Source of the DNA: Candidatus Paceibacter sp.
GTDB taxonomy: Bacteria > Patescibacteriota > Minisyncoccia > UBA6257 > HR35
Assembly: GCA_023255765.1 (NCBI GenBank)
Contig: JAGDVT010000033.1
Span: forward strand, 1-33,322
Reading direction: 5' to 3'
Length of the DNA stretch: 33,322 nt
Shown here: positions 1 through 31,095 of the stretch, in pieces
Numbering within the stretch: position 1 is the first letter of the stretch
Layout of the letters: each line of letters begins with the position of its first letter
Translations under genes and position numbers: made by a program
The notes under the pieces: generated by a model
What the model was told of the DNA's origin: nothing
Database searches by the model: none
Seen by the model: only the letters and a program-made list of their open reading frames with translations

Positions 1-292
1 ATAAAATCAATCTAGCTGAAAATATATAAGGATTTATCCAATATAGAACAACTCCAGAAATAAATATTATTACTAACCCTATTATAGCATTTTTCATTCT
101 GTTTTTGCCCTGCATTTTAACATCAGGAATTGTAGAAAGCAGGTTTTCAAATGCACCAAATAAAAAAACAAAAAATGCAACTAAAACAGCTATAGCAACC
201 AAAAAATTATATATACCCTGAAGGCAACTTTGTAATGTTTTATCTATTCCGCAGTATTCTGACAAAAAATTAATAAAAAAACCTTGATCCAT
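1..292 (-). CDS. VirB2/TrbC-like T4SS pilin candidate (small two-helix hairpin membrane protein); 3' end runs off the window
   Basis: Absent from the ORF track because it is open to the window edge. My translation of the minus strand from the ATG at 292-290 gives MDQGFFINFLSEYCGIDKTLQSCLQGIYNFLVAIAVLVAFFVFLFGAFENLLSTIPDVKMQGKNRMKNAIIGLVIIFISGVVLYWINPYIFSARLIL, with no stop before position 2. It has two hydrophobic helices separated by a short charged loop. Its start overlaps the TAA of the upstream ORF (TAATG). Confidence 0.45.
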   Translation of the reverse strand, partial: MDQGFFINFLSEYCGIDKTLQSCLQGIYNFLVAIAVLVAFFVFLFGAFENLLSTIPDVKMQGKNRMKNAIIGLVIIFISGVVLYWINPYIFSARLIL

Positions 293-897
293 TATTGGCT
301 AAAGATTATTTTATCTGAAGCAAATTCATTGCTATCTAAATTGTTAACAAATAATTGAATTTCAGTTTCTTCATTAATATCAGAAGGATCGAGCATTATA
401 GCAGAATAATATTTGCCTTTTACTTTCCATGTATAAGAAAGATTATTTGATGAGAAGTTAAATATTAAAGGAAACAATTTTTCTCCTGGATTATATTTGG
501 TGAATGGCAAAACAACATTTAAATTTTCTAGATATCTAACAATAGAAACGCGAGGCTTAGCTTTTATATTAAAAGTAAAATTATAACTCTTGAAAAAACT
601 GTTATCATTAGGATAAATTTTGACTTTTCCCATAAAATTTCTTTCTTTAGGAGTAAAAACTAATAAAGGTTTGGATGTTTTAAATTCTTCAAAATTTGCG
701 GAGTAATTGATTATCCATTCATAATTTAATTCATCTAAATTATATTTTTTATTTTTGTTAATAATATAACCTTCTATTGCAACCAAATATAAATCGCTTC
801 TTTTGTCAAAAGAAAAATAAACAGAGTCATTTTCAGCAAGGGCAAATTTAGATATTAATAAAAATAATATTGTTAAAATAATAAAAAGTCTATACAT
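292..897 (-). CDS. Hypothetical exported or signal-anchored protein, 201 aa, in the T4SS-like operon
   Basis: The N-terminal hydrophobic segment MYRLFIILTILFLLISKFALA is followed by a beta-rich, N/K/F/Y-rich domain. It is co-directional and tightly packed with the VirB4-like genes. No motif recognised. Confidence 0.6.
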   Translation of the reverse strand: MYRLFIILTILFLLISKFALAENDSVYFSFDKRSDLYLVAIEGYIINKNKKYNLDELNYEWIINYSANFEEFKTSKPLLVFTPKERNFMGKVKIYPNDNSFFKSYNFTFNIKAKPRVSIVRYLENLNVVLPFTKYNPGEKLFPLIFNFSSNNLSYTWKVKGKYYSAIMLDPSDINEETEIQLFVNNLDSNEFASDKIIFSQ

Positions 898-928
898 TAA
901 TTAAAATATTATAAAATAACATTAATTT

Positions 929-1453
929 TTAAGACTCTTCTTTCTCCTCCTCTTCTTTTTCTTCCTGCCCCTTTTTCTTGATTGCTTTTCTAACTTTCCA
1001 TAATCTTGCTACTCTATATCTACTAACAAAAGAAGCTATAGTTTTTAAAGGAAGAGAATCTGATATTTGCGCTATTGGTATAAAAGTTACAACTAATTCA
1101 TAGCCTACAATTAATAAATATAAAGCACCCTCTAATAAACCTAAGACCTCGGTTTTTATATAATAATGAATTAAATAAGCAAATATAATAAGCCCTGGTA
1201 TTTCAAAAAAAAGTGTAATATAAGGAAGAAAAAACAAAGTTCCACCTGTGGCAAGAGTTATTAAATTAAAAATAATTTCAAGTCCATCAGCAATAACTAA
1301 TAATAAGATAGAGCCCCACCATAATATTGTAATTCCTATACTATCTTCTGTCTCTTTATATTCTCCTTTTTCTTTTTTTTCAGCTTCTTTTTCAATTTCT
1401 TCTTCAAGTCTTTTTTTAGCATAGGAGATTACTTTTTCTTTTATAACTTTCAT
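929..1453 (-). CDS. Hypothetical polytopic membrane protein, 174 aa, with charged K/E-rich N- and C-terminal tails
   Basis: About four hydrophobic helices sit between a K/E-rich N-terminus and the C-terminal tail KKKGQEEKEEEEKEES. ATGA overlap with the upstream VirB4-like ORF at 1450-1453. Confidence 0.6.
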   Translation of the reverse strand: MKVIKEKVISYAKKRLEEEIEKEAEKKEKGEYKETEDSIGITILWWGSILLLVIADGLEIIFNLITLATGGTLFFLPYITLFFEIPGLIIFAYLIHYYIKTEVLGLLEGALYLLIVGYELVVTFIPIAQISDSLPLKTIASFVSRYRVARLWKVRKAIKKKGQEEKEEEEKEES

Positions 1454-3246
1454 TGAACTTTTTTAGCTGCTTCTCTTACAGCTATTAATTGTTCTAAGCT
1501 TGCTTTTATTATTTGATCTTCTGCGTAAGATCCTAAAACATATAATGGGATTCTTTTAAGTCCTGCAATTAAAATGCCCCTACCCCTTTCTGCTTGTATT
1601 AAAAATCTCTTTTCTCCTTCTGATAATGCAAAAACTTGACCAACTAAATCTATAGTAGCAGGTGATTGTTTCATTAAAAATACTAATGCTGAATTAGTTA
1701 TAATCGGTTTACCATATGGTGAATTCAAAAAATCTTCTGCATCTTGAGTGATAGTTGTTATACCAAGAAGATATTTTCTACCCCTTTTAATTGCATTAAG
1801 CAAAAAATTAGCGCCTGACTCATTTTTCATAATCCACCAGGCTTCATCTATTATTAAAACCCTCCTTTTTCTAATTCTTCTGACCTTATTCATTAAATCA
1901 TTTAAAACCATATACATTCCTATAGGCCTTAATTCTTCTACTAAATCTCTAAAACCAAAAACCACAATTCTTTTATTTATATCCACATTTGTAGGTTGAT
2001 TTATAAATCCACTAAAATTACCTTGGGTAAATGGATATAACTTTTCAGCAATTTTTTTGCCACCTTCTATACTTAATAGAACTTTCTCAAAATCATTTAA
2101 GGTAGGAAAAATCTCTACCTTAGAAAAATCCATATTAGGTAAAATATTAAAAGATGCATAAGTTTGATGGATTGCTCTATCAACAACAGTTAATTCTTCT
2201 GCATTAAATTTTTCTCCTATGATTACTTCTAACAATCCTATAATATCACTAACTTTTTCTTTGTAAACATCTTCTGGATTTTCTCCTTCTAATACAGGTG
2301 GTAAATCAAAAGGATTTATATGATACTCTGATCTTAAAGATATGGGTATAAAAGAACCACCATATATTTCTGCTATAGATCGGTATTCATTTTCTGGATC
2401 TAATACTATCACATCTTGCCCTAACATTAAATTTCTCATAATTTCGATTTTTGCAGTATAACTTTTACCTGAACCTGATCTTGCAATAATTACCATGTGC
2501 GCATTTTCAAAAGCAAATCTATCTAACAAAACTAAAGAATTGTCTTGCAAATTTATACCTAATAATACTCCTTTGTCCATAGAAAGTTCAGAAGATATGA
2601 AAGGGAAAAAAGAACTTGCAGCAGAAGAATTCATTGTATAATGAACATTTAAATAATCTTTACATAAAGGTAAATTAGATAAAAATGCATTTTCTTGCTC
2701 CAAAATAACAGGCTTAGCTATAATTAAACTACTTTCTAATAATTTAATAATTTGATGTTCTCTAACAAGCAAATCATCTTTATTTTCACCAAATATAGTT
2801 AGATATAATCCTACATTTAAAACTTTTTCTGTGCCTTGTATAATTGCCTCTTTTAATTCTTCTATATCTTTTAAAGCGGTTTCTAGCCTAGGATCTCTTG
2901 GTAGTCCTTTTTCTTCTATCTCGTATATTTGACTTTCAATTCTTAAAGATTGTTTATTTAGCTGCTTCAAAAATACGCCTGGATCCCTTGGGATAAAAAA
3001 TATTGAAAGATTAAATGGTTCTGGTAAAGATAAAATATTTTCTAACCAGCCTGCAAACAAATATCTCGGATAAGTTATTACTATTATATTTTTGCCATAT
3101 ATCTCCCCTATTTGAAAATCAGATATATTAAAAATGACAGCAGGAGGAGCAATAATACTTTTTATATGCTCAAATCCTTTTTTTTCTTCTATAACAGGAA
3201 CCCCTACTTTTTCTTCTTTTTTAAAAAATGGTAATCTTATTTTCAT
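1450..3246 (-). CDS. virB4: VirB4/TraC-like T4SS ATPase, ATPase-containing portion
   Basis: 598 aa. Walker A in IIARSGSGKSYT, Walker B in RVLIIDEAWW, and a downstream ITTITQDAEDF motif. The upstream segment YPRYLFAGWLENIL is typical of Gram-positive-type VirB4 proteins. It directly follows a VirB3-like gene. Confidence 0.85.
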   Translation of the reverse strand: MKIRLPFFKKEEKVGVPVIEEKKGFEHIKSIIAPPAVIFNISDFQIGEIYGKNIIVITYPRYLFAGWLENILSLPEPFNLSIFFIPRDPGVFLKQLNKQSLRIESQIYEIEEKGLPRDPRLETALKDIEELKEAIIQGTEKVLNVGLYLTIFGENKDDLLVREHQIIKLLESSLIIAKPVILEQENAFLSNLPLCKDYLNVHYTMNSSAASSFFPFISSELSMDKGVLLGINLQDNSLVLLDRFAFENAHMVIIARSGSGKSYTAKIEIMRNLMLGQDVIVLDPENEYRSIAEIYGGSFIPISLRSEYHINPFDLPPVLEGENPEDVYKEKVSDIIGLLEVIIGEKFNAEELTVVDRAIHQTYASFNILPNMDFSKVEIFPTLNDFEKVLLSIEGGKKIAEKLYPFTQGNFSGFINQPTNVDINKRIVVFGFRDLVEELRPIGMYMVLNDLMNKVRRIRKRRVLIIDEAWWIMKNESGANFLLNAIKRGRKYLLGITTITQDAEDFLNSPYGKPIITNSALVFLMKQSPATIDLVGQVFALSEGEKRFLIQAERGRGILIAGLKRIPLYVLGSYAEDQIIKASLEQLIAVREAAKKVQ

Positions 3247-3872
3247 TCTTCTATTGTTTGCATTAATTCTTCAAATAGTTTTATAGGAGCCATACCCCAC
3301 CTTGGATTAGGATTATAAAGTTCATAAAAAAGTTGTATTATTTCTGCATTCTTTAATCTTATAGGTTGAAGCCCTAATGCCGCAAACTTTTCTGTTATAT
3401 ATATAACCCTTGTCTCAAGTTGTTCTAATTGTTGATAAAACTCTTCTTCTTTTTTATACTCTTTTTTAAAAAATCCACCTATTTTTATTGCTTCAGTCTC
3501 ATAAGGTATTACAATATAAAACAATTTCTTCATAATTTTATGTGTTTGTATATAATCTTGAATAAATTTAATATACTCTTCTAGTTGTATTTTAATTAAG
3601 GGCTCTGTTTCTTGTTCTAATCTTTCTTTTAAATAATTAACATACCCCTCAATATAAGCTAATCTTGAAACTACAAATATTTGAAGATTAAAATCTAACC
3701 CATCTAACAATTCCTTAAACAAACCTACAACTGCCTCCTTTTCTTGTTCAGAAAGCAAAGAAAAATTAATACCCGGAACAGCCAAAATAGCCCTTAATCC
3801 ACCATCTTCAGTTATTATTACATCATTTTTAACGTCCTTAATTTTAATCAAATATGATGTACTTTTTACCAT
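3243..3872 (-). CDS. VirB4 N-terminal-domain-like protein encoded as a separate ORF
   Basis: 209 aa. The N-terminus IKDVKNDVIITEDGGLRAILAVPGINFSLLSEQEKEAVVGLFKELLDGL resembles the start of full-length Gram-positive VirB4 homologues. Its TGA stop overlaps the ATG of the ATPase ORF (ATGA at 3243-3246). Confidence 0.55.
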   Translation of the reverse strand: MVKSTSYLIKIKDVKNDVIITEDGGLRAILAVPGINFSLLSEQEKEAVVGLFKELLDGLDFNLQIFVVSRLAYIEGYVNYLKERLEQETEPLIKIQLEEYIKFIQDYIQTHKIMKKLFYIVIPYETEAIKIGGFFKKEYKKEEEFYQQLEQLETRVIYITEKFAALGLQPIRLKNAEIIQLFYELYNPNPRWGMAPIKLFEELMQTIEE

Positions 3873-4384
3873 GATCTTTTAGGAAATTTTGGGATAGGAA
3901 AATTAATATAAGGATCATATGGATTATATCCATGTTTATGAGCTGTTTTTATATACTCTGAAATCGGATTTTTTATAACAATTTCCTCGCCCTCTTTTTT
4001 ATATTCCTCTTTTATTTTTTTAGGTTCAATTTCTTCTTCTAAAAGCTCAATATATTTTTCAACAGTAGGCATATTTATATATTTAGTAGTAATTTTAACT
4101 TCTTCTCTCCAAAGATATTTTTTTGTTGAAAATAAAGATATTAATAATGTAGGAATATAATTTAAAATAGGCTTGTTGTTAATTTTACCCCAACCCAATA
4201 AACCTGCTAAAAATATTACAAAAATAGTTATTAAAAGAGCAAACAAAGATGGCAAAATCTTAAAAGCAGCAAAAGAAATTAGAAAAGCTAAAAAAGCTAA
4301 AATTAATTGAGCATATGTAAAAGAACCTATCCACAAATATAATCTATCCTCTATATTTATATATTGTGGTACATTGAACCGCAT
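3866..4384 (-). CDS. PrgI/VirB3-like small membrane protein
   Basis: 172 aa. The N-terminus MRFNVPQYINIEDRLYLWIGSFTYAQLILAFLA is followed by two hydrophobic helices, the pattern of PrgI-family (VirB3-like) proteins. It sits immediately upstream of VirB4, which is the conserved VirB3-VirB4 order. Confidence 0.55.
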   Translation of the reverse strand: MRFNVPQYINIEDRLYLWIGSFTYAQLILAFLAFLISFAAFKILPSLFALLITIFVIFLAGLLGWGKINNKPILNYIPTLLISLFSTKKYLWREEVKITTKYINMPTVEKYIELLEEEIEPKKIKEEYKKEGEEIVIKNPISEYIKTAHKHGYNPYDPYINFPIPKFPKRSW

Positions 4385-4392
4385 TAAAATAA

Positions 4393-5049
4393 TTATAAAT
4401 TAGAAAGGTCTATAACGCCCTCTTCTTTTTTATTTTCTTCCTTTTGCTTTTTAATGATAACAACTCCTGAACCTTCTATTTCTTTAGGCTTTGGTGGAGA
4501 CCAAGAAATAGTTTGATTTATATCTACTACTTTTTTGGGAATTTCTGTTTTAATTGGCTGAGTTTTAGACAAATCTATAGCTTCTTCTTTCTTTTTCTCG
4601 ATTTCTGCGAACTCTTTTTTAGGAGGGATTATTTTTTGTAAATTTAAAACTTTTGTTGAGGGTTGTCTTTCTTTTACCTTTTTAATTATATCTACTAATT
4701 CTTTTGGTGCTTCTTTAATAATTTTTTCTTCTTTTTCAGCTTTTTTTTGTATGCTTTGCCAAATATTGTTTACTAGAGGCAAAAATTTTGTTTTTATATG
4801 ATAAGCTAATGCTGCAGAGTTTTCATCATTAAGCCCCAATCTTTCCTTTATAATTGTTTTTAAATCTGCATTTTCATCAATTAATTTAATAGACAAATCT
4901 TGAAGTAAATATATAAATTCAGTTTCTTGCTCTTCATTTAACTCGAATTTTTTAGTATATTCATCTAAAAATGAGTAAAAATCATCAGAATACAAAAATC
5001 CTCGTATTTCTAAAGGAGCTTCATATAATGCCTCCAAAAATGTTTTCAT
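4393..5049 (-). CDS. Hypothetical soluble K/E/P-rich protein, 218 aa
   Basis: No hydrophobic segment. A helical N-terminal half is followed by a low-complexity K/E/P-rich C-terminal half. A repeated EE-x-IDLS motif is present (EEAIDLSKT and EEGVIDLSNL at the C-terminus). Confidence 0.5.
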   Translation of the reverse strand: MKTFLEALYEAPLEIRGFLYSDDFYSFLDEYTKKFELNEEQETEFIYLLQDLSIKLIDENADLKTIIKERLGLNDENSAALAYHIKTKFLPLVNNIWQSIQKKAEKEEKIIKEAPKELVDIIKKVKERQPSTKVLNLQKIIPPKKEFAEIEKKKEEAIDLSKTQPIKTEIPKKVVDINQTISWSPPKPKEIEGSGVVIIKKQKEENKKEEGVIDLSNL

Positions 5050-5069
5050 TAATTAAATTATAAAATAAA

Positions 5070-7589
5070 CTATGGTCCTTGTTGCTGCTGTGAAGATTGC
5101 TGTTGTGTTTGAGTTGCTGTTCTTATAGGTTCAAAAGATACTCCTGTTGGTCTTTCAAATATGCTTGCTAAATTTTGTAAAATTATTTGTATTTGTTGTT
5201 GATTTTGATTTATGTTTTGTTGAAGGGCACCTGCAATACCTTGAAGTTGATTTTGTTTCTTTCGTAAATCCTTTAATTGTTGCTCTTGTCTATAAAGTTC
5301 TAATAGCTGTTTTAAGTTGTTTGCAATAGTTTGTGATCTATAATCCTTCACAGGTTCAAAAATACTAATAGCATAATCCAGATTCTCTTCTAATGTTTTA
5401 CTATCGTCGTAATGACCCACACTACGACCTTTAAGATAATTCCTAATCGCTTCTTCTAAGTCTTCACCTGTTTGAATCCCCAATCCTTGTCTTGTTTGTG
5501 CAATCTGGTTCTCTAATTGTCGTATAGTGTTACTAATGGTAGTAATTTGATCTTGTATAGAAGTCGTAATTTGAGGTATTAATCTTTGTTCCAAATCCCC
5601 TCCCCACTCCCTTAACGTCCCTGCATTAATTTTCCCTCCCGAATATTGTCCAGTTAAATTATCTAAAATTTGTTTTCTTAAAGTTGGGTCTGTAATTCCA
5701 GCAAGATCTAAAATGCTGCTTACACCACTTTCGAATGCACGATAAGTTCCTGTCCCCTTTATTATACCTTGATATTGTGCCAAAACATCAGGAGCATTTT
5801 GACTTAACCAAGCTAAATTTTCTGGGTGAGCAAAAAATCTTCTTTGATCATCTCTATCCAAAAAAAACGGCAATGATTGTGCTAAACTTTTAATTTCATC
5901 TTGTTGGTACCCTAATCTATTTAAAACCTCATTTAGATCCCTTAAATTCACATCCCTCCATTGTAATCTTTGTGCTAAAATAGGCAGAGCTCTTCCTGCT
6001 TGGCTTTTATCAGTTAACATTGTTAAAGCACAATTTAATTTACTAGCACATAAGTTTTTAATTACAGCTTTATCTAATTTAGCCAAATCTAAATTTGATG
6101 CTAATTTTAATATTTGATCTGCAGTTAATTCTTGACCAGCTCTTTTTGCTAATTCTTTTTGCAAAGGCCCTTTATACCTGCTAAGTTCTCTAGCAATTTC
6201 TTCTGGTGATTTATCTTTAATTTGATTCCATATAGCTTTTGCTTCTTCACTTGCACGTTCTCTTGTTGGTTTCTGTATAGATTCTGCTAAATCTTGGACT
6301 CTTAAACCTAACCTTCTTAATGGACTAAATGGTGACTTGGTTAATATATCACCAACCTTACTTAAACCGCCACCCATTCTATCAAGCGCAGGAGAAGCAA
6401 GCCATCTTCCTGCTCCTGCTGCAGCTAATCCAGCTGCCATCCATAACCTTCCTCCTAGTCTATAAGCATAATCTCCAAATACCCAGCCTAATTTGGTTGC
6501 AAGAATTAAAACAAAAATAAAATAAGCGCCAATAAAAGCAAACTTTAAAATTAAAGCGATTATTATCGCAAAATCAGTTAACAAACTTCCAGGTCCCATA
6601 GTTTTTGTAAGATCGCCATAACTTAAAAATATATTTGCTATTTCTTGTTCACGTAAGGCGCCTGTATTTGTTGCAATTAATGAAATTCCTATTAAAATCA
6701 ATGGTATTAAAATTAAGATATTGACGTTCCAATTAATAAAAAATTTCCACCAATTATCCCAATGTCTTTTATACCAAGGAGTGACATATGCAATACAGAC
6801 TAATGGTAAAATTCCAACTAAAAATGATATTATTAAGAATCTTCCAATAGAAATACCAGCAAAAACCCACATAATTAAAGAATAGACAACATTTAATACA
6901 TTAGCCAAAAGTCTGCCAGATAATATATAAGCAGCTTTAATATTATGAACACTTCCGCCTTCTTTTTCAGCCATTTGTTCAGCTATTTGTTGTGCCATTG
7001 CCTCTATTTTTTTAGAAATTTCGCTGGGGGGTACAAAAGACAAGGCTGCATATAATAAATTCCCAAACTCAGAAAACTCAGTATTTTTTAAATTTTTTTG
7101 TAGTCCTGCTGATTGTAATATTCCTATTTGTAAATACCATATTGCTGTAAAAATTTCTTTTGCTAATATAAAAGTAAAATTAATTAAAAATGCAATTAAA
7201 ATAATACCAAAAACCATTTTTCTTGCATCATCATCCCTTCCTATAATCCATTCAAACCCTGCTATTAAGGCTAAGAACACCAATGAAACATAAGAGATAT
7301 TTTTGAAAAATTCCCATAATATAGAAGCAAATCCATACTGCCCAAAAGGATTTAAAGAAATGAAAACATTAACTACAATAGCTGCGATTTGAGATAATTG
7401 TTTAAATAAAAAATCCGTAGCATAAAGTGCTATCCCTGCAATAAAATTTAAAAGATCTAAAACAATTCCTGTAATGCCTCCGTGCCTAAAATATTCAATT
7501 ATACCTATTACTACACCACCTAATGCCAACCCAATACCTATAGCAGCTAAAACCGTTATACCCTTATTTTTAAAATTTCTCTTACTCAT
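5070..7589 (-). CDS. VirB6/TrbL-like polytopic membrane protein with a long soluble C-terminal extension and Gln-rich tail
   Basis: 839 aa. Roughly the first 400 aa contain many hydrophobic helices. The remaining approximately 440 aa are soluble and partly coiled-coil, ending in QQNINQNQQQIQ...QTQQQSSQQQQGP. It lies upstream of the VirB3-like and VirB4-like genes, as prgH does before prgI and prgJ. Assignment rests on topology and synteny, not on a recognised motif. Confidence 0.5.
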   Translation of the reverse strand: MSKRNFKNKGITVLAAIGIGLALGGVVIGIIEYFRHGGITGIVLDLLNFIAGIALYATDFLFKQLSQIAAIVVNVFISLNPFGQYGFASILWEFFKNISYVSLVFLALIAGFEWIIGRDDDARKMVFGIILIAFLINFTFILAKEIFTAIWYLQIGILQSAGLQKNLKNTEFSEFGNLLYAALSFVPPSEISKKIEAMAQQIAEQMAEKEGGSVHNIKAAYILSGRLLANVLNVVYSLIMWVFAGISIGRFLIISFLVGILPLVCIAYVTPWYKRHWDNWWKFFINWNVNILILIPLILIGISLIATNTGALREQEIANIFLSYGDLTKTMGPGSLLTDFAIIIALILKFAFIGAYFIFVLILATKLGWVFGDYAYRLGGRLWMAAGLAAAGAGRWLASPALDRMGGGLSKVGDILTKSPFSPLRRLGLRVQDLAESIQKPTRERASEEAKAIWNQIKDKSPEEIARELSRYKGPLQKELAKRAGQELTADQILKLASNLDLAKLDKAVIKNLCASKLNCALTMLTDKSQAGRALPILAQRLQWRDVNLRDLNEVLNRLGYQQDEIKSLAQSLPFFLDRDDQRRFFAHPENLAWLSQNAPDVLAQYQGIIKGTGTYRAFESGVSSILDLAGITDPTLRKQILDNLTGQYSGGKINAGTLREWGGDLEQRLIPQITTSIQDQITTISNTIRQLENQIAQTRQGLGIQTGEDLEEAIRNYLKGRSVGHYDDSKTLEENLDYAISIFEPVKDYRSQTIANNLKQLLELYRQEQQLKDLRKKQNQLQGIAGALQQNINQNQQQIQIILQNLASIFERPTGVSFEPIRTATQTQQQSSQQQQGP

Positions 7590-10500
7590 TTAATAATAAT
7601 TCTTTTTGGTTTAAATATGTTAAATACATTGAATATACTTGCAAATAAATTTTTTGTAATTTCAAAGATTCTTTTAATTAAGCTAATTCTACTTTCTTTT
7701 TGGATTTGAGAGGTAGGTTCTTCTTGGGGTAAGCTTTCTTCTTCTTGTTGAGATTGGCTTTGAGATATAGAAGAATTTATCTCATCTTCGATTTTTTGGA
7801 CAATTTCATTGTAACTTTTGCATAGTTCATATTCTCTATCCATTATATCATTAATTTTATCTATATTATTTTCTAAAACAGAAGAAATCTGATTAATCTC
7901 TTCATTGCTTAATTTAGATAAATATTCGTCCCAAATTTTACCTTTTTCTTTATCTAATTGTTTATTTAATTCCTCTAATTTTGCTTTTAATTCATTTAAT
8001 TTTTGTAATTTGTTCCAAAATTCTATATCTTGAGAAGATCTATTTTTTATGATTTCAATAGCTTCTTTATATCCTTGGGAAAGTTGATAGATAAACTCTA
8101 AAGTTTCTCCAAGCCTCAAAATTATAGCCTTCCCCTCTGCTTGATTGAGGCTTTTATTTTTTTTAGCTATCCCTATTTCATAATCATAAATTCCTTTATC
8201 TTTTGCATATTTAATAGTACTTGAAGCATAATTGTTTAAACTATCGAAATAATCATAAATTCTATCAATTTCTTGAGAAATTTTTTCTGATAGTACATTT
8301 TGAGCAGTTAATTTAGTTAAAAGATTATTAATTGAAGCTAAAAAGCTTTCACTCTGTATACCTGATTTTTTAGCAGGAGAATTGTATAATGAATAAAATA
8401 TGTAAATTAGGTCATGAACAATAAAATAAGTTGAAATACGAGCATCACTAGAGCCATTTATGCGGGTCTTGTAGTAATAAAAATCTATACCCAATGTGCT
8501 ATTTTCAAATCTACTTTTAATTTCCTCATATGATTTACCTCTTAAACAATTTAAAATATGAGTAGGATAAAAATCTGAAAAGAATGAAAGCTTTTCTCTA
8601 TTTCCTAAACTAGGAGAGCATAAAGTATAATTTGGATTTTCTCCAACCATATCTCCATTTACAAAAATATATTCTAAAGGAAAATTACTTATACCTCCTT
8701 TTTCTAAATCAAGATAATCTTCAAAAAATTGAGAAATTTTACTTCCATATGCATAAGAGAATTTGTCAAAAATCTCGCTTATTTTTCTATTAAATTCATT
8801 AAAAGTTTGTTCTACTTCTTTATTTAATCTTTCTATTTCAGCAGTAGTGCTTGCTATTTGGTTTTCTAAATTAGTTATTGTAGCATTTCTTAATTCTAAA
8901 GTTATTTTACTTAGATCACTTAAGGTAGAAGAAGCTTGATCCAAAGAGCCTATAATACTGTTTAATTCAGAGACCAAGGTATTATTATTTTCTTGTAAAT
9001 TATATAAACTTCCTAAGTTAGATTCTGAAATTTTGTCTCTATAATTATTATTTTCAATTTCCTGAAGAAGATTAGTTATAGTAGCATTATTTTCGTTTAA
9101 TTTATCAGATATATTTTGAAAACTGCTTAAAATTTTAACTAATTTTGAAGATTCATTTTTAATATCAGAAGTCATTAAATCTGTTATTGTTTTACCTTGA
9201 GATTGCAAAGTTTGTTTACACATATCTGAAAATCCTTTTACACTTAAGACTTCTGTTTTTTTGCATATATTTTCTATCCTTTGGGAGCTATAAGCATTCT
9301 TAATGTCAGTAATTATTTCATTTTTAGATTTTCTGCTTTCTAAACTTGCAAATCCTTTGTCTATTATATTAAATAGTTTTGTAGCAATCCAAGTTCTTAC
9401 AAATGATGCCAAAACAGTAGCTGCCCTTTCTTGTGATTTAAAGAAATCTAAAGGAGAGGTCAATATTTGCTCTTTTAATTTTTCATAGTCAGATGGAGAA
9501 CTAATTGTTGGTCCTGATATAGCACATCTTGGGTCTTCTCCTGTTATATTTTTTTCTTGTTCAATTCTTTTATCTACTTCTGCTAATTTTCTATAAAGCT
9601 CATCTGCCTTTTTCTCATCACCCCTGTCCATAGCTTCATTTATTTGTCTTGTTAATTCTTCCTTTTCAACTTCACTCCAAGTTTTAATACATTCTGACTT
9701 TGGTTTAAATACTAATCCGCCTGGCTGTGATGATTCTATATCTAATTTTTCTTTTTCTTTATCTAATTCTCTTAATATATTTGCAAAATCCGAAGATAAA
9801 AGCCAAGAACAATTTCTACTATGTATCTCTCTGTTTATGATTTCATTAATATCGAAATAAATAATATTTGACATGCTTAAGTTTTGGTTAGTGTAAAATT
9901 GGGCTACCAGATTTTTAGGATTTATTATTTTGAATATATTAGCAAAAACATTTGTAGATTTTCCTTCTACTTTGGCTATTAATTTATTTGGTTTAGAATT
10001 TAAGGCATAAACAGAACCTTCTTCTTCGGTTTCAGATATAGGATTTTCTAATCCTAAATCTTTATAAACCAAAATTTCCTCTTCAGGCTCGCAAACTCTT
10101 TTTTCTAATATGTTAATTTTTTGATATTTAATAAAAGAATCAAAATATCTAATTAATTTTCCTGAATTTTCGGATTCAGATAATATGTTTCTTCCAGAAA
10201 GCAAGATATTTCCTAAAATACCATCTAAGCAACCTTTTAATTCTTCTGGAATGCATTGCAAATTTTTATATTTATTCAATATCCTAGTTAAAGCCTTTTG
10301 CTGGGCTAAGAATAACCTAAAATTTCTATAAGCATTTATATCTTTGATAAAATTACCAAGAATTTTATTATATATTAAATCGTTTATTTTATTAATTAAT
10401 TTAAATTTAAAATACTCTATTGCATCTTTAATAGCAAGTTGGATAGATGCCTTTATTGAGGCCAAAACATTTTTTGTGCTTTCCTTAATAGAATTTCTTA

Positions 10501-10861
10501 TATCAGCATTAACTTCTTTCGCACCAACAGGCACTTTACCAAATAAACCCTCCACAAAACTTCCAACTAAATCCATGGCTAATCCTGTTATTACACCCCT
10601 TATCAATTCTTCTAAAAAAGATGGCGGCTTTTCTTCAAATCCTGCAAAATTTTCAAATTCACTTATATATTCAACTGTTTCAGTTGCTGCTTCAAGTTCC
10701 TCTATTTTTATATATTGAGGAGGCTCACATCTTAATTTGTAAGAAGAAAAATCTACTTTATTTTGATTGTCTTGCTCGTTATTTTGAGCAAAAATTAAAT
10801 CTACTTTTATGCTTAAATTCAATAAACTTATAATAATGAAAAATATAAAAATTTTTTTCAT
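7586..10861 (-). CDS. Large secreted coiled-coil protein, 1091 aa, function unknown
   Basis: Signal-peptide-like N-terminus MKKIFIFFIIISLLNLSIKVDLIFAQ. Long N/K/E/S-rich helical stretches and an internal NATITNL repeat. ATGA overlaps with both neighbouring genes (7586-7589 and 10858-10861). Confidence 0.7.
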   Translation of the reverse strand: MKKIFIFFIIISLLNLSIKVDLIFAQNNEQDNQNKVDFSSYKLRCEPPQYIKIEELEAATETVEYISEFENFAGFEEKPPSFLEELIRGVITGLAMDLVGSFVEGLFGKVPVGAKEVNADIRNSIKESTKNVLASIKASIQLAIKDAIEYFKFKLINKINDLIYNKILGNFIKDINAYRNFRLFLAQQKALTRILNKYKNLQCIPEELKGCLDGILGNILLSGRNILSESENSGKLIRYFDSFIKYQKINILEKRVCEPEEEILVYKDLGLENPISETEEEGSVYALNSKPNKLIAKVEGKSTNVFANIFKIINPKNLVAQFYTNQNLSMSNIIYFDINEIINREIHSRNCSWLLSSDFANILRELDKEKEKLDIESSQPGGLVFKPKSECIKTWSEVEKEELTRQINEAMDRGDEKKADELYRKLAEVDKRIEQEKNITGEDPRCAISGPTISSPSDYEKLKEQILTSPLDFFKSQERAATVLASFVRTWIATKLFNIIDKGFASLESRKSKNEIITDIKNAYSSQRIENICKKTEVLSVKGFSDMCKQTLQSQGKTITDLMTSDIKNESSKLVKILSSFQNISDKLNENNATITNLLQEIENNNYRDKISESNLGSLYNLQENNNTLVSELNSIIGSLDQASSTLSDLSKITLELRNATITNLENQIASTTAEIERLNKEVEQTFNEFNRKISEIFDKFSYAYGSKISQFFEDYLDLEKGGISNFPLEYIFVNGDMVGENPNYTLCSPSLGNREKLSFFSDFYPTHILNCLRGKSYEEIKSRFENSTLGIDFYYYKTRINGSSDARISTYFIVHDLIYIFYSLYNSPAKKSGIQSESFLASINNLLTKLTAQNVLSEKISQEIDRIYDYFDSLNNYASSTIKYAKDKGIYDYEIGIAKKNKSLNQAEGKAIILRLGETLEFIYQLSQGYKEAIEIIKNRSSQDIEFWNKLQKLNELKAKLEELNKQLDKEKGKIWDEYLSKLSNEEINQISSVLENNIDKINDIMDREYELCKSYNEIVQKIEDEINSSISQSQSQQEEESLPQEEPTSQIQKESRISLIKRIFEITKNLFASIFNVFNIFKPKRIIIK

Positions 10862-11499
10862 AATTTTTCAATTAATTTTTCTTGTAAATCCGATAAATTA
10901 TTTAAAATAGACATTAAAATAAAAGATTGCTCACTATCATTTGTTGATGCTAAGTTATTTAACGTAAGTCCCATTAATGAAAGAATAAAAGTTTCTGCTC
11001 TATGAAAATCATAATATTCTTTAGGAACCTCTATTTTAGAGAAATCCTCTGCTATTGATAAAATAAGTTCTCCAGAGTTTTTGATAGATTCTTTATTGTC
11101 GAAATCAATTTGAATAAATTTAAGCTTGTTTAAAACATTTTTTACTTCATTAGCATATTCTTTTAAGTTTTTATCATTCTTTATTTTTATATTATTAATA
11201 TATCTAGCTGTAAGTTCAATTAAATTTGCCTCTAATTCAATTTTTTTATTTTGTAATTTAAGTTTTTCTAATTTATTTGCAAAATATAATTCTTTTGCAA
11301 TTTTTTTATCAGGTGTTTCTAAAAATTTAATTACTTCTTTAAATTCTGGGGGAGCTGACTCTAATATTTCTTTATATTTATTTTTATCTTCTTTTTCAGA
11401 TAATTTTATATTCTTTTTAATATTAAAAAATCCAATAATAGTTATAATTAGAAAAATAAAAATTATTACTGCTCCAATTAAAACCTTTTTGTTTTTCAT
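10858..11499 (-). CDS. Bitopic membrane protein, 213 aa, first gene of the T4SS-like operon
   Basis: A single N-terminal TM helix (VLIGAVIIFIFLIITIIGFF) is followed by a helical K/E/N-rich domain. Its ATG lies 4 nt downstream of tRNA-Thr. Confidence 0.6.
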   Translation of the reverse strand: MKNKKVLIGAVIIFIFLIITIIGFFNIKKNIKLSEKEDKNKYKEILESAPPEFKEVIKFLETPDKKIAKELYFANKLEKLKLQNKKIELEANLIELTARYINNIKIKNDKNLKEYANEVKNVLNKLKFIQIDFDNKESIKNSGELILSIAEDFSKIEVPKEYYDFHRAETFILSLMGLTLNNLASTNDSEQSFILMSILNNLSDLQEKLIEKL

Positions 11500-11503
11500 A
11501 TTG

Positions 11504-11575
11504 AGCCAGCAGCGGGATTCGAACCCGCAACCTACTCCTTACGAAGGAGCCGCTCTACCATTGAGCTATGCTGGC
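11504..11575 (-). tRNA. tRNA-Thr (anticodon CGU), no encoded CCA
   Basis: Hand-folded cloverleaf on the minus strand: GCCAGCA TA GCTC AATGGTA GAGC G GCTCC TTCGTAA GGAGT AGGTT GCGGG TTCGAAT CCCGC TGCTGGC T. The GC-rich island stands out from the AT-rich background. Confidence 0.9.
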
Positions 11576-12207: not shown

Positions 12208-12693
12208 TTAATAAAAAAATTTTCTATACCAAATTTCCCATAAAGGTATTGATTCTTCGTACTCATCTAAAAATTGATTTAATGTTTCTCTAATTTCTTC
12301 TACATCTAAATAAAATTCAAGAGGGATTGATTGTCCTATTTTCATAAAACCTTTTGGTACAAAATATATAAAATATCTATCACCGCCTTGAAAAATTTCA
12401 AATCCAAGAATATCATCCCATTTATAAAATTTATTATTCACATATAACCCTTCATTATTTATTTTTATTCTCAACTCTTTTGGTTCATAAAATGCAGGAT
12501 GAAAAAAGAAAAATAAAGCAATAAAAGAAATCACAAGATATAAAAAATCTTTAACTATTATTGAATATAAAATAGAAGCTCCTACTACAATTCCCCAAAA
12601 TAAATGCCATAATATATCTCCGTAAGGATGTTCATAATGAGATAAGGTTGTCCAGGAATATTCGAATTTTGGTATATTTTTATTTAAAGCCAT
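12208..12693 (-). CDS. Hypothetical membrane protein, 161 aa
   Basis: Two hydrophobic helices are followed by a small soluble domain. No motif recognised. First gene after the divergent intergenic region. Confidence 0.55.
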   Translation of the reverse strand: MALNKNIPKFEYSWTTLSHYEHPYGDILWHLFWGIVVGASILYSIIVKDFLYLVISFIALFFFFHPAFYEPKELRIKINNEGLYVNNKFYKWDDILGFEIFQGGDRYFIYFVPKGFMKIGQSIPLEFYLDVEEIRETLNQFLDEYEESIPLWEIWYRKFFY

Positions 12694-12732: not shown

Positions 12733-15150
12733 ATGAGTTATCCGTTTAAAAAAATAGAAAAAAAGTGGCAAAAAGTTTGGGCTAAGAATAATTACAAAAT
12801 TTGGCATGCTAAAGACTTTAAAGGCAAGAAAATATATATTTTAGATATGTTTCCTTATCCTTCCGGAGATGGACTGCATGTTGGTCATGTTCTTGGATAT
12901 ACAGGCACAGATATTTTATCTAGATACTATAGAATGAAAGGATATAATGTGCTTCATCCTATGGGATGGGATGCATTTGGATTGCCTGCTGAAAATTATG
13001 CAATAAAAATGAAAAAGAATCCTATGACATTTGTGCCTAAAAACATCAAAAGATATAAAATGCAGATGAATATGATAGGGTTAAGCTATGATTGGCAAAG
13101 AGAAATAAATACTACTGACCCAGAATATTATAAATGGACACAATGGATGTTTTTAAAAATGTTTGAAAAAGGTTTGGTGTACGAAAAGCTAGCTCCTATA
13201 AATTTTTGTCCTTCGTGCAAAACAGGTTTAGCAAACGAAGAAGTAATTGGAGGTAGATGTGAAAGATGCGGCTCTAAAACTGAAACAAAATATTTAAATC
13301 AATGGCATATAAAAATAACAGCATATGCAGATAGATTACTTGAAGACTTAGAAGAATTAAATTGGCCAGAAAATGTAAAAGAAATGCAAAGAAATTGGAT
13401 AGGAAAAAGCGAAGGATATGAAATTGACTTCAAAATAGTAGGTTATGACTATAAAATAACTATCTTTACTACCAGATTAGATACTATATTCGGAGTTACA
13501 TTTTTAGTTTTAGCCCCAGAGCATCCATTATGTTTGAAGATTGCAAAAGAAGACTATTATTTTAATGTTGAAAATTATATAGAAAATGCATTAAAAAAAC
13601 CAGAAAGAGAAAGAAAAACAGAGGAAGAAGTTACTGGTGTATTTACCGGCTCTTATGCTATACATCCATTAACAGGTGAAAAAGTTCCTATATGGATTAG
13701 CGATTATGTTTTATTTACTTATGGAACAGGTGCGATAATGGGAGTGCCTGGCCATGACTCAAGAGATTACGATTTTGCTAAAAAATTTAGCTTAAAAATA
13801 ATTCCAGTAATAGGCCCAGAAAAAGGCAAAGAACCAGAAAATCTTCCATATGAAGAATATGGCTATCTTATAAATTCATTTGATTATAATGATTTAGATT
13901 CCAAAACAGCAATTCAAAAAATAGGAGAAGAGTTAGAAAAGAGAGGTATAGCTAAAAAAGCAATATATTATAAATTAAGAGATTGGATTTTTTCAAGGCA
14001 AAGATATTGGGGGGAACCGATCCCTCTTGTAAGATGTCCTAAATGTGGGATAGTGCCGTTAAGTGAAAAAGATTTGCCATTAAAATTACCAAAAGTAAAA
14101 AATTATGAACCAACTGGTACAGGAGAATCTCCTCTAAAAAATATATCTAAATGGGTTAAAACAAAATGTCCAAAATGTAAAGGACCAGCAGAAAGAGAAA
14201 CTCATACAATGCCTCAATGGGCAGGTTCTTGTTGGTATTATTTAAGGTATATAGATCCTAAAAACAAAAAACAATTTGCTGACAAGAAAAAATTAAAGTA
14301 TTGGTTACCAGTAGATATATATGTAGGAGGAGTTGAGCATGCTGTTTTACATCTTCTCTATGCAAGATTTTGGCATAAGTTTTTATATGATTTAGGATTA
14401 GTTCCTACAAAAGAGCCATTTATGAAATTAGTTAATCAAGGCTTAATTTTAGGACCTGATCATGAAAAAATGTCAAAATCAAGAGGAAATGTAATAATCC
14501 CAGACGATATAGTTAAAAAATATGGAGCAGATACTTTAAGAATGTATGAAATGTTTATGGGACCATTTGAAGATGTAAAGCCATGGGATACTCAAGGAAT
14601 ATTAGGAATTCATAGATTTTTAAATAAAATATGGATAATTTCTAAAAAAATTAAAAAAGACAAAATAAAGAAGGAAAAGGATAACGAAATATTAACCGAA
14701 ATTAATAAATTAATTAAAAAAGTAAGCGAAGACATTGAGAATTTTAAATTTAATACAGCAATAAGTTCTATGATGGAATTTGTTAATTTCATATCTGATA
14801 AAAAAGTATCTATAGAAACATGGATGAAATTTGTGAAATTACTATTTCCATTTGCCCCACATTTAGCACAAGAAATTTGGTCAATGTTTGGGAACAAAAA
14901 GCTTTTAGATTATGAAAAATGGCCTGAATATGAAGAAAAATATATAAAAGAAAAACATATAAAATTAATAATCCAAATAGATGGGAAGAAGAGAGATGAA
15001 ATCGAAATAGAAGAAACTGCACTAGATTTTGATAAGATTAAAAACTTAGTATTAAACAGAGAAAGAATAAAGAAATTTATAAAAGACAAAAAAATAGATA
15101 AAATTATTTTTGCTCAAAATAAAATAATCAATATAGTAACAAAAAGTTAA
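12733..15150 (+). CDS. leuS: Leucyl-tRNA synthetase
   Basis: 805 aa. HIGH-type motif (GLHVGHVLGY), KMSKS motif, the CP1 editing domain start TTRLDTIFGVTFLVLAPEHP, and zinc-binding CPSC/CERC pairs. Confidence 0.97.
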   Translation: MSYPFKKIEKKWQKVWAKNNYKIWHAKDFKGKKIYILDMFPYPSGDGLHVGHVLGYTGTDILSRYYRMKGYNVLHPMGWDAFGLPAENYAIKMKKNPMTFVPKNIKRYKMQMNMIGLSYDWQREINTTDPEYYKWTQWMFLKMFEKGLVYEKLAPINFCPSCKTGLANEEVIGGRCERCGSKTETKYLNQWHIKITAYADRLLEDLEELNWPENVKEMQRNWIGKSEGYEIDFKIVGYDYKITIFTTRLDTIFGVTFLVLAPEHPLCLKIAKEDYYFNVENYIENALKKPERERKTEEEVTGVFTGSYAIHPLTGEKVPIWISDYVLFTYGTGAIMGVPGHDSRDYDFAKKFSLKIIPVIGPEKGKEPENLPYEEYGYLINSFDYNDLDSKTAIQKIGEELEKRGIAKKAIYYKLRDWIFSRQRYWGEPIPLVRCPKCGIVPLSEKDLPLKLPKVKNYEPTGTGESPLKNISKWVKTKCPKCKGPAERETHTMPQWAGSCWYYLRYIDPKNKKQFADKKKLKYWLPVDIYVGGVEHAVLHLLYARFWHKFLYDLGLVPTKEPFMKLVNQGLILGPDHEKMSKSRGNVIIPDDIVKKYGADTLRMYEMFMGPFEDVKPWDTQGILGIHRFLNKIWIISKKIKKDKIKKEKDNEILTEINKLIKKVSEDIENFKFNTAISSMMEFVNFISDKKVSIETWMKFVKLLFPFAPHLAQEIWSMFGNKKLLDYEKWPEYEEKYIKEKHIKLIIQIDGKKRDEIEIEETALDFDKIKNLVLNRERIKKFIKDKKIDKIIFAQNKIINIVTKS

Positions 15151-15506
15151 AAGCCTAAAGCGCTTCCATAACCAGTTATAGTACCTATAGTAAATATTGG
15201 AATTGGATGTGGAAATGCTGGTTTTAGGCATACCCCACCTGGTACCCACCAACCTAACATTTTAGTACCAGGCTTAGGAGGATAAATATAATTCAAATAT
15301 CTATTACTTCCTACGGGTACAAAATAAGGACCAGGTGGAATATTAACGAAATTCCCTGCAGGAGGTTGAACTTTTATCATTACTCCGCCATTTAAGCAAG
15401 GAAAAGGGAAAACAAAAACTACTCTTGGAGTACCAAAAGGAAGGCCTTGTGAAAAAGAAATAAAAGGAAGAAATAGAAATATAAATAAAAACAAAATTTT
15501 TTTCAT
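15147..15506 (-). CDS. Small secreted Pro/Gly-rich protein, 119 aa, function unknown
   Basis: The signal peptide MKKILFLFIFLFLPFISFSQG is followed by a P/G/V-rich sequence with two Cys. Its ATG lies 4 nt after tRNA-Ile. Its stop overlaps the leuS stop by 4 nt in convergent orientation. Confidence 0.5.
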   Translation of the reverse strand: MKKILFLFIFLFLPFISFSQGLPFGTPRVVFVFPFPCLNGGVMIKVQPPAGNFVNIPPGPYFVPVGSNRYLNYIYPPKPGTKMLGWWVPGGVCLKPAFPHPIPIFTIGTITGYGSALGF

Positions 15507-15510
15507 AATG

Positions 15511-15582
15511 TGCGGCTGGGAGGATTCGAACCTCCGACCTGGTGTTTATAAGACACCCGCTCTGCCACTGAGCTACAGCCGC
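15511..15582 (-). tRNA. tRNA-Ile with genomically encoded UAU anticodon, no encoded CCA
   Basis: Hand-folded on the minus strand: GCGGCTG TA GCTC AGTGGCA GAGC G GGTGT CTTATAA ACACC AGGTC GGAGG TTCGAAT CCTCC CAGCCGC A. The anticodon loop CTTATAA places TAT at positions 34-36. Confidence 0.85.
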
Positions 15583-18778: not shown

Positions 18779-19570
18779 ATGAATGGCTATTTTAGAAAGG
18801 AATTTTTAGATAAAAGATATTATGGAGAAATAATTAAAAGAACTGATGGTATTATTTTAACTAAAAATTATAAAGAAGGCGAACGTGTAATTATAGAAAA
18901 ATTGATTTTTAAAGATAAAAATGGGGAAAAGTTAGATATAACAAGATTTTTGCCAGAGGGGTGGAAATTTGTTAAAAATAAAGAATTTTCTGCAAATAGA
19001 GAAAACAAAGAAATTAAATTGGGTAATTTAAAAGAAGTCGGAGCATTATTTACGATATTTCATGAAATAGGGCATGCTATATCTTATGAAAATAATATTG
19101 AAGATCCTAAAAAAATTTTAGAAGAATATACTCATAATTTAGAAAATAGACAGCTAACAAAAGAAGACATAATAAAAAGAGGAGAAAAAATAGAAGACTA
19201 TGAAGAAATACTAGTTTATGATCCTTATGGTAAGAGTGTGGGATTTGACAGAGATGAGCCGTTCTTTACCATGTTAGTTCCTAAAAAAGTTATAAAAAAT
19301 TACGGAGAAGCACTAGCTAAATTAGAAAGAAATGCGTGGGCTTATGCTTTAAATCAAATTAGAAATTTAAGAAATAAAGGAATAATAATTGAAAATGAAT
19401 TACCAACCTTAGAAAAGCTTGTAAATTTTATTTATTCTTGTCTATTAACATATGAAGAAGATTTCAAGAAAAGATATAAAGATCCAACTCCCTATTTTAC
19501 TAAAGGTAAGAAGTTTGAAAAAATAGAAGAATTATTTAAAAATTGGGCGGGAGAGGAATCGAACCTCTGA
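18779..19570 (+). CDS. Hypothetical protein with an HExxH zinc-metallopeptidase motif
   Basis: 263 aa with a single HEIGH motif (FTIFHEIGHAISYE). No signal peptide. The last 27 nt overlap tRNA-Val on the opposite strand. Confidence 0.5.
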   Translation: MNGYFRKEFLDKRYYGEIIKRTDGIILTKNYKEGERVIIEKLIFKDKNGEKLDITRFLPEGWKFVKNKEFSANRENKEIKLGNLKEVGALFTIFHEIGHAISYENNIEDPKKILEEYTHNLENRQLTKEDIIKRGEKIEDYEEILVYDPYGKSVGFDRDEPFFTMLVPKKVIKNYGEALAKLERNAWAYALNQIRNLRNKGIIIENELPTLEKLVNFIYSCLLTYEEDFKKRYKDPTPYFTKGKKFEKIEELFKNWAGEESNL

Positions 19571-21649: not shown

Positions 21650-21841
21650 TTAATAATTTAAATATTTTTTAATTAAATCATCCTCAAAGTCTTTGAAATT
21701 TCTTTTATTCCTTATAAGATCTCTGGGTTTTTTTGCAAGAAAATGATTTACACCAGAAACTCTTCTTAACAATCTTTTATTTTTTGTGATTTTAATTCTT
21801 TTTAAAACAGATTTTCTAGTTTTACCTGGAGCCATTTTCAT
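21650..21841 (-). CDS. rpmI: 50S ribosomal protein L35
   Basis: 63 aa, basic. KTRKSVLKRIKITKNKRLLRRVSGVNHFLAKK matches the L35 pattern. ATGA overlap with infC. Confidence 0.85.
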   Translation of the reverse strand: MKMAPGKTRKSVLKRIKITKNKRLLRRVSGVNHFLAKKPRDLIRNKRNFKDFEDDLIKKYLNY

Positions 21842-22323: not shown

Positions 22324-22352
22324 TTTTCTATATTATTTTACTATAATTTCGA

Positions 22353-31094: not shown

Positions 31095-31095
31095 T

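Follow-up and report, generated by a model that had tools for sequence, protein, structure and literature searches.

A probable Patescibacteria-clade type IV secretion locus in a Candidatus Paceibacter contig, with an apparently two-piece VirB4 motor

The closest described relatives of the operon treated here, which fills one end of a 33,322-nucleotide contig of Candidatus Paceibacter sp. (GenBank JAGDVT010000033.1, assembly GCA_023255765.1; this whole stretch is called the window), are the type IV secretion systems (T4SSs) of the ultrasmall, host-dependent Patescibacteria, which a 2025 review calls the 'most exciting newcomers' of the T4SS superfamily (PMC12857230). A survey of 3,035 Patescibacteria genomes found VirB4 in 2,417 of them, as a monophyletic clade nested in MPF-FATA, with genes for TrsD, PrgI/VirB3, VirB6 and a VirB2-like pilin near virB4 and with relaxases almost absent (Quinonero-Coronel et al. 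2025, PMC12102498). According to the same survey, VirD4-like genes are common in Patescibacteria but are located away from virB4, and dnaA, dnaN, rnpA and rpmH adjoin virB4 in the Paceibacteria and Microgenomatia. Transposon sequencing (Tn-seq) showed the T4SS and its pilins to be indispensable to epibiotic growth in the saccharibacterium Southlakia epibionticum, in which no recognisable coupling protein or relaxase was reported and for whose system a role in protein export was suggested instead (Wang et al. 2023, PMC10633639).

We conclude that the operon very probably belongs to this clade, as a chromosomally fixed, vertically inherited descendant of an MPF-FATA mating pore that has lost its link to DNA processing. 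The system was already described in the papers of 2023 to 2025, and the locus is an independent rediscovery of it. As an earlier sequence-only reading had stated, and as the listing of open reading frames (ORFs) agrees, ten co-directional ORFs run on the minus strand from position 11499 past the window edge; we name them g01 to g10. They are joined by four ATGA overlaps of 4 nt, one TAATG overlap, one overlap of 7 nt (g05/g06) and gaps of 8, 20 and 31 nt. Hence, the tight junctions described earlier (ATGA or TAATG overlaps, gaps of 31 nt or less) are real, the 7-nt overlap being the one element left out. The ORFs are without disruption, and their base composition is that of the remaining window (window G+C about 27%). 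The operon and the tRNA gene ahead of it consist of the following features:

tRNA-Thr(CGU), 11503..11575, minus strand: found by ARAGORN and Rfam
g01, 10858..11499, minus strand: 213 aa, N-terminal transmembrane anchor and a helix-rich domain predicted outside
g02, 7586..10861, minus strand: 1091 aa, predicted secreted, Cys-containing, mostly alpha-helical/coiled-coil
g03, 5070..7589, minus strand: 839 aa, 'extended' VirB6-like polytopic membrane protein (family-level assignment)
g04, 4393..5049, minus strand: 218 aa, predicted cytoplasmic; a conserved, unnamed component
g05, 3866..4384, minus strand: 172 aa, PrgI/VirB3-like membrane protein (family-level assignment)
g06, 3243..3872, minus strand: 209 aa, detached VirB4 N-terminal domain (TrsD/TraC-like)
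g07, 1450..3246, minus strand: 598 aa, VirB4 ATPase body, with linker and RecA-like ATPase domain
g08, 929..1453, minus strand: 174 aa, about four transmembrane segments and charged ends
g09, 292..897, minus strand: 201 aa, predicted secreted or anchored; two beta-rich repeats of about 95 aa
g10, 1..292, minus strand: first 97 aa without a stop, VirB2-type pilin-domain protein cut by the contig end

The motor identifies the system. g07 scores 347.5 bits against NCBIfam NF045971 ('VirB4-like conjugal transfer ATPase, CD1110 family'; cutoff 325) and 85.7 bits against Pfam P-loop_TraG; AAA_10 and DUF87 also match, and the protein carries a Walker A motif (ARSGSGKS) and a Walker B motif (VLIIDE); the earlier naming of the 598-aa ORF as VirB4 is thereby confirmed. 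Homologues of about 600 aa number more than 7000, and among the 120 best matches listed, those with a source name come from Patescibacteria, Parcubacteria, Minisyncoccia or Pacebacteria. The closest profiles outside the Candidate Phyla Radiation (CPR) are those of VirB4 from integrative and conjugative elements (ICEs) and plasmids (CD1110, Mbov_0397 ICE family).

It should be noted that g07 covers only model positions 181-734 of NF045971 and aligns with residues 225-778 of pCF10 PrgJ (E 4e-37). The ORF directly upstream had been read as PrgI/VirB3, a placement that we correct. This 209-aa protein, g06, matches the N-terminal regions of VirB4 (NF045975, E 8e-10) and TrsD (NF041427, E 6e-7), its matches lying in the N-terminal 100-280 residues of VirB4 models; its precomputed annotation is PF26593, TraC-like, and it was found in 81 of 86 sequences examined. 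Furthermore, a locus labelled Harrisonbacteria (L083, 9332-11689, plus strand; sampled loci are numbered with the letter L) encodes g06 (residues 7-205) and g07 (residues 224-782) in a single ORF of 785 aa, while the two counterparts are separate ORFs in all other loci carrying both. Evidently, g06 is the missing N-terminal domain of VirB4 and g07 the ATPase body, as judged from these alignments. Directly upstream of VirB4 there is thus its own detached N-domain and no VirB3; the PrgI-like part is the 172-aa g05, the next gene upstream.

For the membrane platform, the evidence lies in family profiles. PrgI is matched by 69 of the 73 g05 family members (best E 8e-16) and TcpE by 12, the window's g05 itself scoring 20.8 bits against the 27-bit cutoff of Pfam PrgI. 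The window's g03 alone has no Pfam match, but the profile of its family (61 members) matches R388 TrwI/VirB6 (7o3v_F) with an E-value of 3.7e-7, and 14 of the 61 members match Pfam TrbL/VirB6. Thus, at family level only, g03 is evidently VirB6-like and g05 PrgI/VirB3-like. By hydropathy, g03 is polytopic to about residue 372 and continues into a hydrophilic C-terminal half of about 470 aa, for which no credible match was found within the window's clade. A FliG/MgtE_N-like signal in this half comes from other clades only and is not reproducible for the window's clade, and a match to RSM22 was judged spurious.

These assignments allow a comparison with the MPF-FATA systems of pCF10 (prgH-prgI-prgJ) and pGO1 (trsC-trsD-trsE). 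The order VirB6-like, VirB3-like, VirB4 is shared, as are a CD1110-family VirB4, a separate TrsD-type N-domain ORF as in pGO1, and the lack of a VirB7/9/10 outer-membrane core; the parallel with prgH-prgI-prgJ drawn earlier is therefore sound in its order of parts but loose, because g04 intervenes. In contrast to MPF-FATA, neither a relaxase, VirD4/PcfC, a PrgK-type hydrolase, a PrgL/VirB8-like protein nor an LPXTG adhesin was found here, the VirB2-type pilin domain is present here and absent from Gram-positive systems, the extra g04 stands between the VirB6-like and VirB3-like genes, and the locus is chromosomal and fixed rather than mobile.

The pilin candidate is no small two-helix protein. 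A two-helix VirB2-like pilin had been proposed for the 3' end, and g10 does match PF18895 T4SS_pilin (39.9 bits, cutoff 26.6), with two hydrophobic helices in its hydropathy profile flanking a Lys/Arg-rich loop; by the positive-inside rule, both termini would lie outside the membrane, as in VirB2. The ORF is, however, cut by the end of the source contig, contigs with identical VirB4 all stopping at the same point, and its orthologues are proteins of 331-376 aa with a variable C-terminal domain predicted outside the membrane. Homology search with the 97-aa fragment gave one match. In relatives, T4SS_pilin domains are mostly the N-terminal module of long proteins (100-1100 aa; up to 1101), such as those encoded at L014 10644-11666, L013 13177-14211 and L005 12429-13268. 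Classical pilins measure about 70-120 aa. A few of these pilin-domain proteins have a recognisable C-terminal domain, namely 3D (L013, L014), YkuD (L005), M23 or LTD; most C-terminal parts have no recognisable domain and are Cys-rich. The C-terminal domain of the L006 and L003 proteins was also considered as an SLT-like lytic transglycosylase on account of an 'ESGG...NP' motif, for which Pfam and PDB profile searches gave nothing.

The source contig stops at the window edge, and the downstream layout was read from relatives. The sample comprised 80 loci of GTDB species (Paceibacteria/Parcubacteria) with VirB4 identities from 93% to 43%, the closest with flanks being L006 (VirB4 93% identical) on a 67-kb contig. 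There the operon has twelve genes, a g10 of 340 aa being followed by g11 (224 aa, signal peptide and C-terminal anchor) and g12 (365 aa), whose family has a TolB-like beta-propeller (E 7e-10); the words 'ten-gene' and 'minimal' used earlier thus describe artefacts of the window edge. Past g12 lie convergent yidC-rnpA, then dnaA, dnaN and a gene for a penicillin-binding protein (PBP). The sequence-only reading had held that a relaxase, VirD4 and integrase past position 1, with flanking attachment repeats, would make the locus an ordinary conjugative element; none of these is seen in L006. The L006 layout, tRNA-Thr included, also occurs in L003, L004, L009, L010 and L013.

The gene-order comparison that had been proposed gives an order that recurs across the 80 loci, down to 43% VirB4 identity: g01, a large protein, g03-g10 and g12, then yidC-rnpA-rpmH and dnaA-dnaN. 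Ten gene families recur across the sampled loci, each in 27 to 81 of them. Of the 50 loci with enough flank, 46 have dnaA downstream of virB4 at a distance of up to 10 kb, and the arrangement of tRNA-Thr, operon and dnaA is kept from 93% to 66% VirB4 identity. The shared order in 80 loci, together with the proximity of dnaA in 46 of 50, argues for vertical inheritance, and a chromosomal, vertically inherited locus is what these comparisons support.

As a separate observation, transcription runs towards the position of the relatives' rpmH|dnaA junction (L006 15629-19326) in the T4SS operon and in almost every other gene of the window (33 kb), the ribosomal-protein genes and rpoA among them. If the replication origin (oriC) is at the canonical rpmH|dnaA site, the whole block is head-on to replication. 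GC skew in the window tracks gene orientation and cannot settle the head-on question, which bears on the published idea of 'gene dosage near the origin'.

Genes for mobility and DNA processing were sought by profile scans. Among window ORFs of at least 80 aa, no relaxase, VirD4/coupling ATPase, integrase, replication or peptidoglycan-hydrolase family was detected, in agreement with what had been reported from the sequence alone. The 10-kb flanks of the relatives likewise contain no relaxase, integrase or coupling protein, except for a soluble VirD4/TrwB-like ATPase of 496 aa in L005 (19832-21322, minus strand), which lacks a transmembrane segment at its N terminus, is encoded next to dnaG-rpoD at 8 kb from virB4 and is the only such gene within 10 kb of virB4 among the 80 loci. 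The absence of a coupling protein holds at the locus and cannot be claimed genome-wide, VirD4-like genes being found elsewhere in most such genomes (PMC12102498). tRNA-Thr has no att-like repeat, and the repeats that occur in L006 from tRNA-Thr to yidC are short, AT-rich and of the kind that chance would produce. No match to a VirB7/8/9/10-type family came up among the ten operon proteins, and no ComB7/9/10 or CedA-type part was found among them; the g01, g09 and g12 profiles match no VirB8-like PDB chain. Alignment by hhalign of the family profiles with single pCF10 Prg/Pcf proteins is insensitive, the PrgI positive control reaching 8% probability, and PrgD/F/G/L can be neither assigned nor excluded by it.

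Taken together, the vertical-inheritance context, the absent mobility genes and the literature support the earlier description of a dedicated, chromosomal, non-conjugative envelope machine, belonging to a host-dependent bacterium with a reduced genome; the system is not one for conjugation.

Placed beside the Patescibacteria-clade T4SSs (PMC12102498; S. epibionticum SEML1_0006-0019, PMC10633639), the locus shares the MPF-FATA affinity of VirB4, the adjoining TrsD-like ORF, nearby genes for PrgI/VirB3, VirB6 and a VirB2-type pilin, the lack of a relaxase, and the chromosomal position beside dnaA-dnaN/rnpA/rpmH that is reported for the class Paceibacteria (dnaA being seen here in relatives). The differences concern individual parts. 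S. epibionticum has an array of six short pilins, whereas here there is one pilin-domain gene with a long C-terminal extension; a lysozyme/peptidase gene lies downstream of virB4 in S. epibionticum and none does here; and the 1091-aa helical, secreted g02 is found in the window's clade only, unlike in other Patescibacteria-clade T4SSs. Moreover, g01, g04, g08, g09 and g12 are unnamed in both papers.

The sequence-only reading could name no family for g01, g02, g04, g08 and g09 or for the C-terminal half of g03. No known family or fold was found for them here, and homologous families occur in other loci. g04, seen in 67 loci by a local iterative hidden Markov model (HMM) search and without Pfam or PDB match, has no transmembrane segment; about 95 helix-rich residues form its N-domain, which a disordered Lys/Glu/Pro linker, variable in length, joins to a conserved peptide at the C terminus (DPYRExIE in most lineages, (V/I)xDLSNL in the window's). 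It diverges fast, single-sequence phmmer returning 20 matches among 1.84e9 representatives. g08 has a homologue of about 140 aa in distant loci, encoded downstream of virB4 (hhalign 96.6%, E 5.5e-10), and g08 and g09 are fused into proteins of about 400 aa in L015 (3808-5016), L016 (5464-6654) and L017 (5884-7119), all on the plus strand; this Rosetta-stone fusion suggests that g08 and g09 act together. In g09, the hydrophobic N-terminal segment could be a signal peptide, and two tryptophans, W61 and W157, are invariant. Its profile has no PDB match, and its single-sequence AlphaFold2 (AF2) model reaches a predicted local distance difference test (pLDDT) score of 35.7.

g01 has one N-terminal hydrophobic segment, relatives in 27 loci by the same kind of iterative HMM search, and no Pfam or PDB match; distant members of its family (13 of 26) contain extracellular TSP3_bac calcium-binding repeats. 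We considered g01 as a VirB8 analogue and rejected it, since it reads as helix-rich rather than NTF2-like and its profile matches no VirB8-like chain, and a match to the DivIC ORF is transmembrane/coiled-coil noise. g02 begins with a hydrophobic segment that would fit a signal peptide. The searches found no more than 10-11 relatives, which marks it as clade-specific, and comparison with the protein of about 500 aa at the same position in other clades gave an hhalign probability of 7%, that is, no detectable relation. Its AF2 model from an 11-sequence alignment (pLDDT 61.7, predicted template modelling score 0.37) had no Foldseek match in PDB with E below 0.1, the hits being generic long-helix proteins (SMC, SabA, PrgA, ClyA); weak sequence matches to haemagglutinin HA2 coiled coils were treated as compositional. 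From hydropathy, g01, g02, g08 and g09 are predicted to reside in the envelope, and the Ig-like and TSP3 repeat domains of accessory proteins suggest surface exposure.

How such a machine might work can be outlined from established T4SS biology. VirB3 (g05) and VirB6 (g03) would form a platform that docks a VirB4 hexamer at the membrane, and VirB4, powered by ATP, would extract pilin-domain subunits from the membrane. These subunits, together with the secreted accessory proteins, may then assemble into a filament or conduit across the cell wall, which would act at the site of host contact and move macromolecules. As to direction, we lean towards uptake of host material over Sec-dependent export of effectors. 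Tubular structures, possibly T4SS pili, have been described at a parasite-host interface, with host RNA uptake proposed (bioRxiv 10.64898/2026.06.21.733656). We also offer a bolder and rather improbable version, in which the 'pilin' is a portable VirB2-type hairpin module, extracted by VirB4, that displays or delivers a variable C-terminal domain (3D, M23, YkuD, Cys-rich) at the host interface; it would act with g02 as a device for breaching the cell wall, so that the host is opened to uptake of cytoplasmic material, for example RNA, and g04, which ends in a conserved peptide, would serve the VirB4 motor as a new core adaptor.

Several points weigh against a transporting T4SS of this clade. 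Gram-positive T4SSs usually include VirB8-like and VirB1-like proteins, for which no counterpart was recognised in the window. Taken by themselves, g03 and g05 of the window are under the Pfam cutoffs, their assignment being transitive through family profiles. At 331-376 aa, the g10 orthologues may serve to anchor enzymes in the membrane and not as subunits of a filament; with g01, g02, g04, g08 and g09 lacking a known fold, the extracellular architecture is conjecture; and the sequence gives no indication of substrate or direction. Finally, essentiality was determined outside this lineage, in a species of the class Saccharimonadia.

The rival that survives best, though we think it unlikely, is effector export, in which Sec-secreted proteins, or proteins recruited by a distant VirD4, are pushed into the host, as by Bordetella Ptl, Brucella VirB and Streptococcus suis 89K. 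g02 and g09, and g11 in relatives, are Sec-type secreted products, the L005 locus does have its VirD4/TrwB-like ATPase 8 kb from virB4, protein export has been suggested for the Saccharibacteria system (PMC10633639), and Ptl and Brucella VirB operate without a coupling protein (PMC12102498). Against this, neither the operon nor its surroundings contain a recognisable effector-like gene, toxin domain or immunity pair, and g09 and g12 are conserved like structural parts rather than variable like cargo. Furthermore, because no coupling protein is adjacent, classical one-step substrate export is disfavoured along with conjugation, and in S. epibionticum the coupling-protein homologue is not essential while the T4SS is (PMC12102498).

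An organelle for adhesion only, in which a VirB4-assembled, VirB2-type filament attaches to the host and transports nothing, seems to us less likely still. VirB4 is the pilus-assembly ATPase in classical systems, and the pilin domain, the absence of an adjacent coupling protein and the Ig-like and TSP3 repeat domains of accessory proteins would all suit such a filament. The genome, however, already has type IV pili (PilB/PilC, 29853-32802), which have been implicated in adhesion in Saccharibacteria (PMC10633639), and the strong conservation of an extended VirB6 channel protein suggests a translocon.

We are yet more doubtful of a DNA-uptake (competence) machine like ComB of Helicobacter pylori or the crenarchaeal Ced system. 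In its favour, nucleotide synthesis is lacking in these organisms. Like the present locus, ComB is chromosomal and non-conjugative, has VirB2/3/4/6-type parts and is without coupling protein or relaxase, while Ced (CedA/CedB), a putative import system, has a VirB4-like ATPase and no relaxase and operates in a monoderm envelope; in addition, T4SS loci of the ABY1 class stand beside comF, recG and radA (PMC12102498). g07 does match CedB and CedD in part, but at 60.6 bits against a cutoff of 700 and 29.1 bits against a cutoff of 600, respectively, the two belonging to separate VirB4 subfamilies, and no CedA-like protein is found here. ComB, for its part, belongs to a diderm and works with ComEC through ComB7/8/9/10, none of which was found in the operon. 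Importantly, genetics in the related class separate the T4SS from ComEC-dependent transformation: deletion of comEC in S. epibionticum abolishes transformation and leaves the cells viable, whereas the T4SS is essential (PMC12857230). Hence, transformation there does not proceed through the T4SS, and the T4SS does not depend on ComEC.

That the locus is a conjugative element inserted at tRNA-Thr, or what is left of one in decay, is very improbable and largely refuted, for although a tRNA gene abuts the operon and the closest non-CPR VirB4 profiles come from ICEs and plasmids, there is no relaxase, integrase, coupling protein or att repeat in the window or the relatives' flanks (the L005 ATPase apart), the tRNA-Thr and dnaA context is conserved over the range of VirB4 identity given above, all ORFs are intact and the base composition matches that of the window.

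At the 5' end of the operon, the discriminator base of tRNA-Thr(CGU) lies 4 nt (CAAT) ahead of the g01 ATG, CCA is not encoded, and the spacing leaves no room for a Shine-Dalgarno sequence; the same arrangement is present in six relatives. Because tRNA-Thr ends 4 nt before the g01 ATG, the operon mRNA would be almost leaderless after processing of the tRNA 3' end. Promoter and terminator scans were uninformative, with 89 promoter-like sites against 76 expected in such AT-rich DNA.

The remaining window is of housekeeping character. It encodes DivIC, UPF0102, leucyl- and lysyl-tRNA synthetases (LeuRS, LysRS), a class I aminoacyl-tRNA synthetase of 695 aa, Hsp20, PrsW, MgtC, L35, IF3, S16, L17, RpoA, S4, S11, S13, IF1 and five tRNAs. 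At the far end (29853-33272, minus strand) lie the type IV pilus genes for PilC (413 aa) and PilB (568 aa) and an unassigned ORF of 157 aa; the genome thus has a second, separate filament machine.

Some further observations concern this part of the window. ARAGORN calls a tRNA-Ile with anticodon UAU at 15510-15582 (minus strand); AUA is read in most bacteria by a lysidine-modified CAU tRNA, and a UAU tRNA-Ile is uncommon. The ORF for IF3 that starts with ATG, GTG or TTG (21838-22350, minus strand) covers only the C-terminal domain, and about 300 nt upstream have no listed ORF. The infC gene often uses an atypical (AUU-type) start codon, and such a start codon fits the gap. Four ORFs match no Pfam family, at 12208-12693 (161 aa), 15147-15506 (119 aa), 18779-19570 (263 aa) and 32799-33272 (157 aa); several close relatives have the first at the syntenic place upstream of the operon, and its L006 counterpart matches DUF5673 weakly.

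What the present locus adds to a system already known is modest and is read from sequence comparison: the conserved unnamed parts, the g08-g09 fusion, the two-piece VirB4, and the long pilin-domain proteins, some of which are fused to cell-wall enzymes in relatives. For one further genome of Paceibacteria type, the locus bears out what had been published, and its parts list could guide structural and genetic work. Patescibacteria account for a large part of bacterial diversity and live in attachment to other microbes, and their means of taking resources from the host is unsolved. The T4SS is one of the few conserved envelope machines that they have kept, and it is essential in the sole genetically tractable species.

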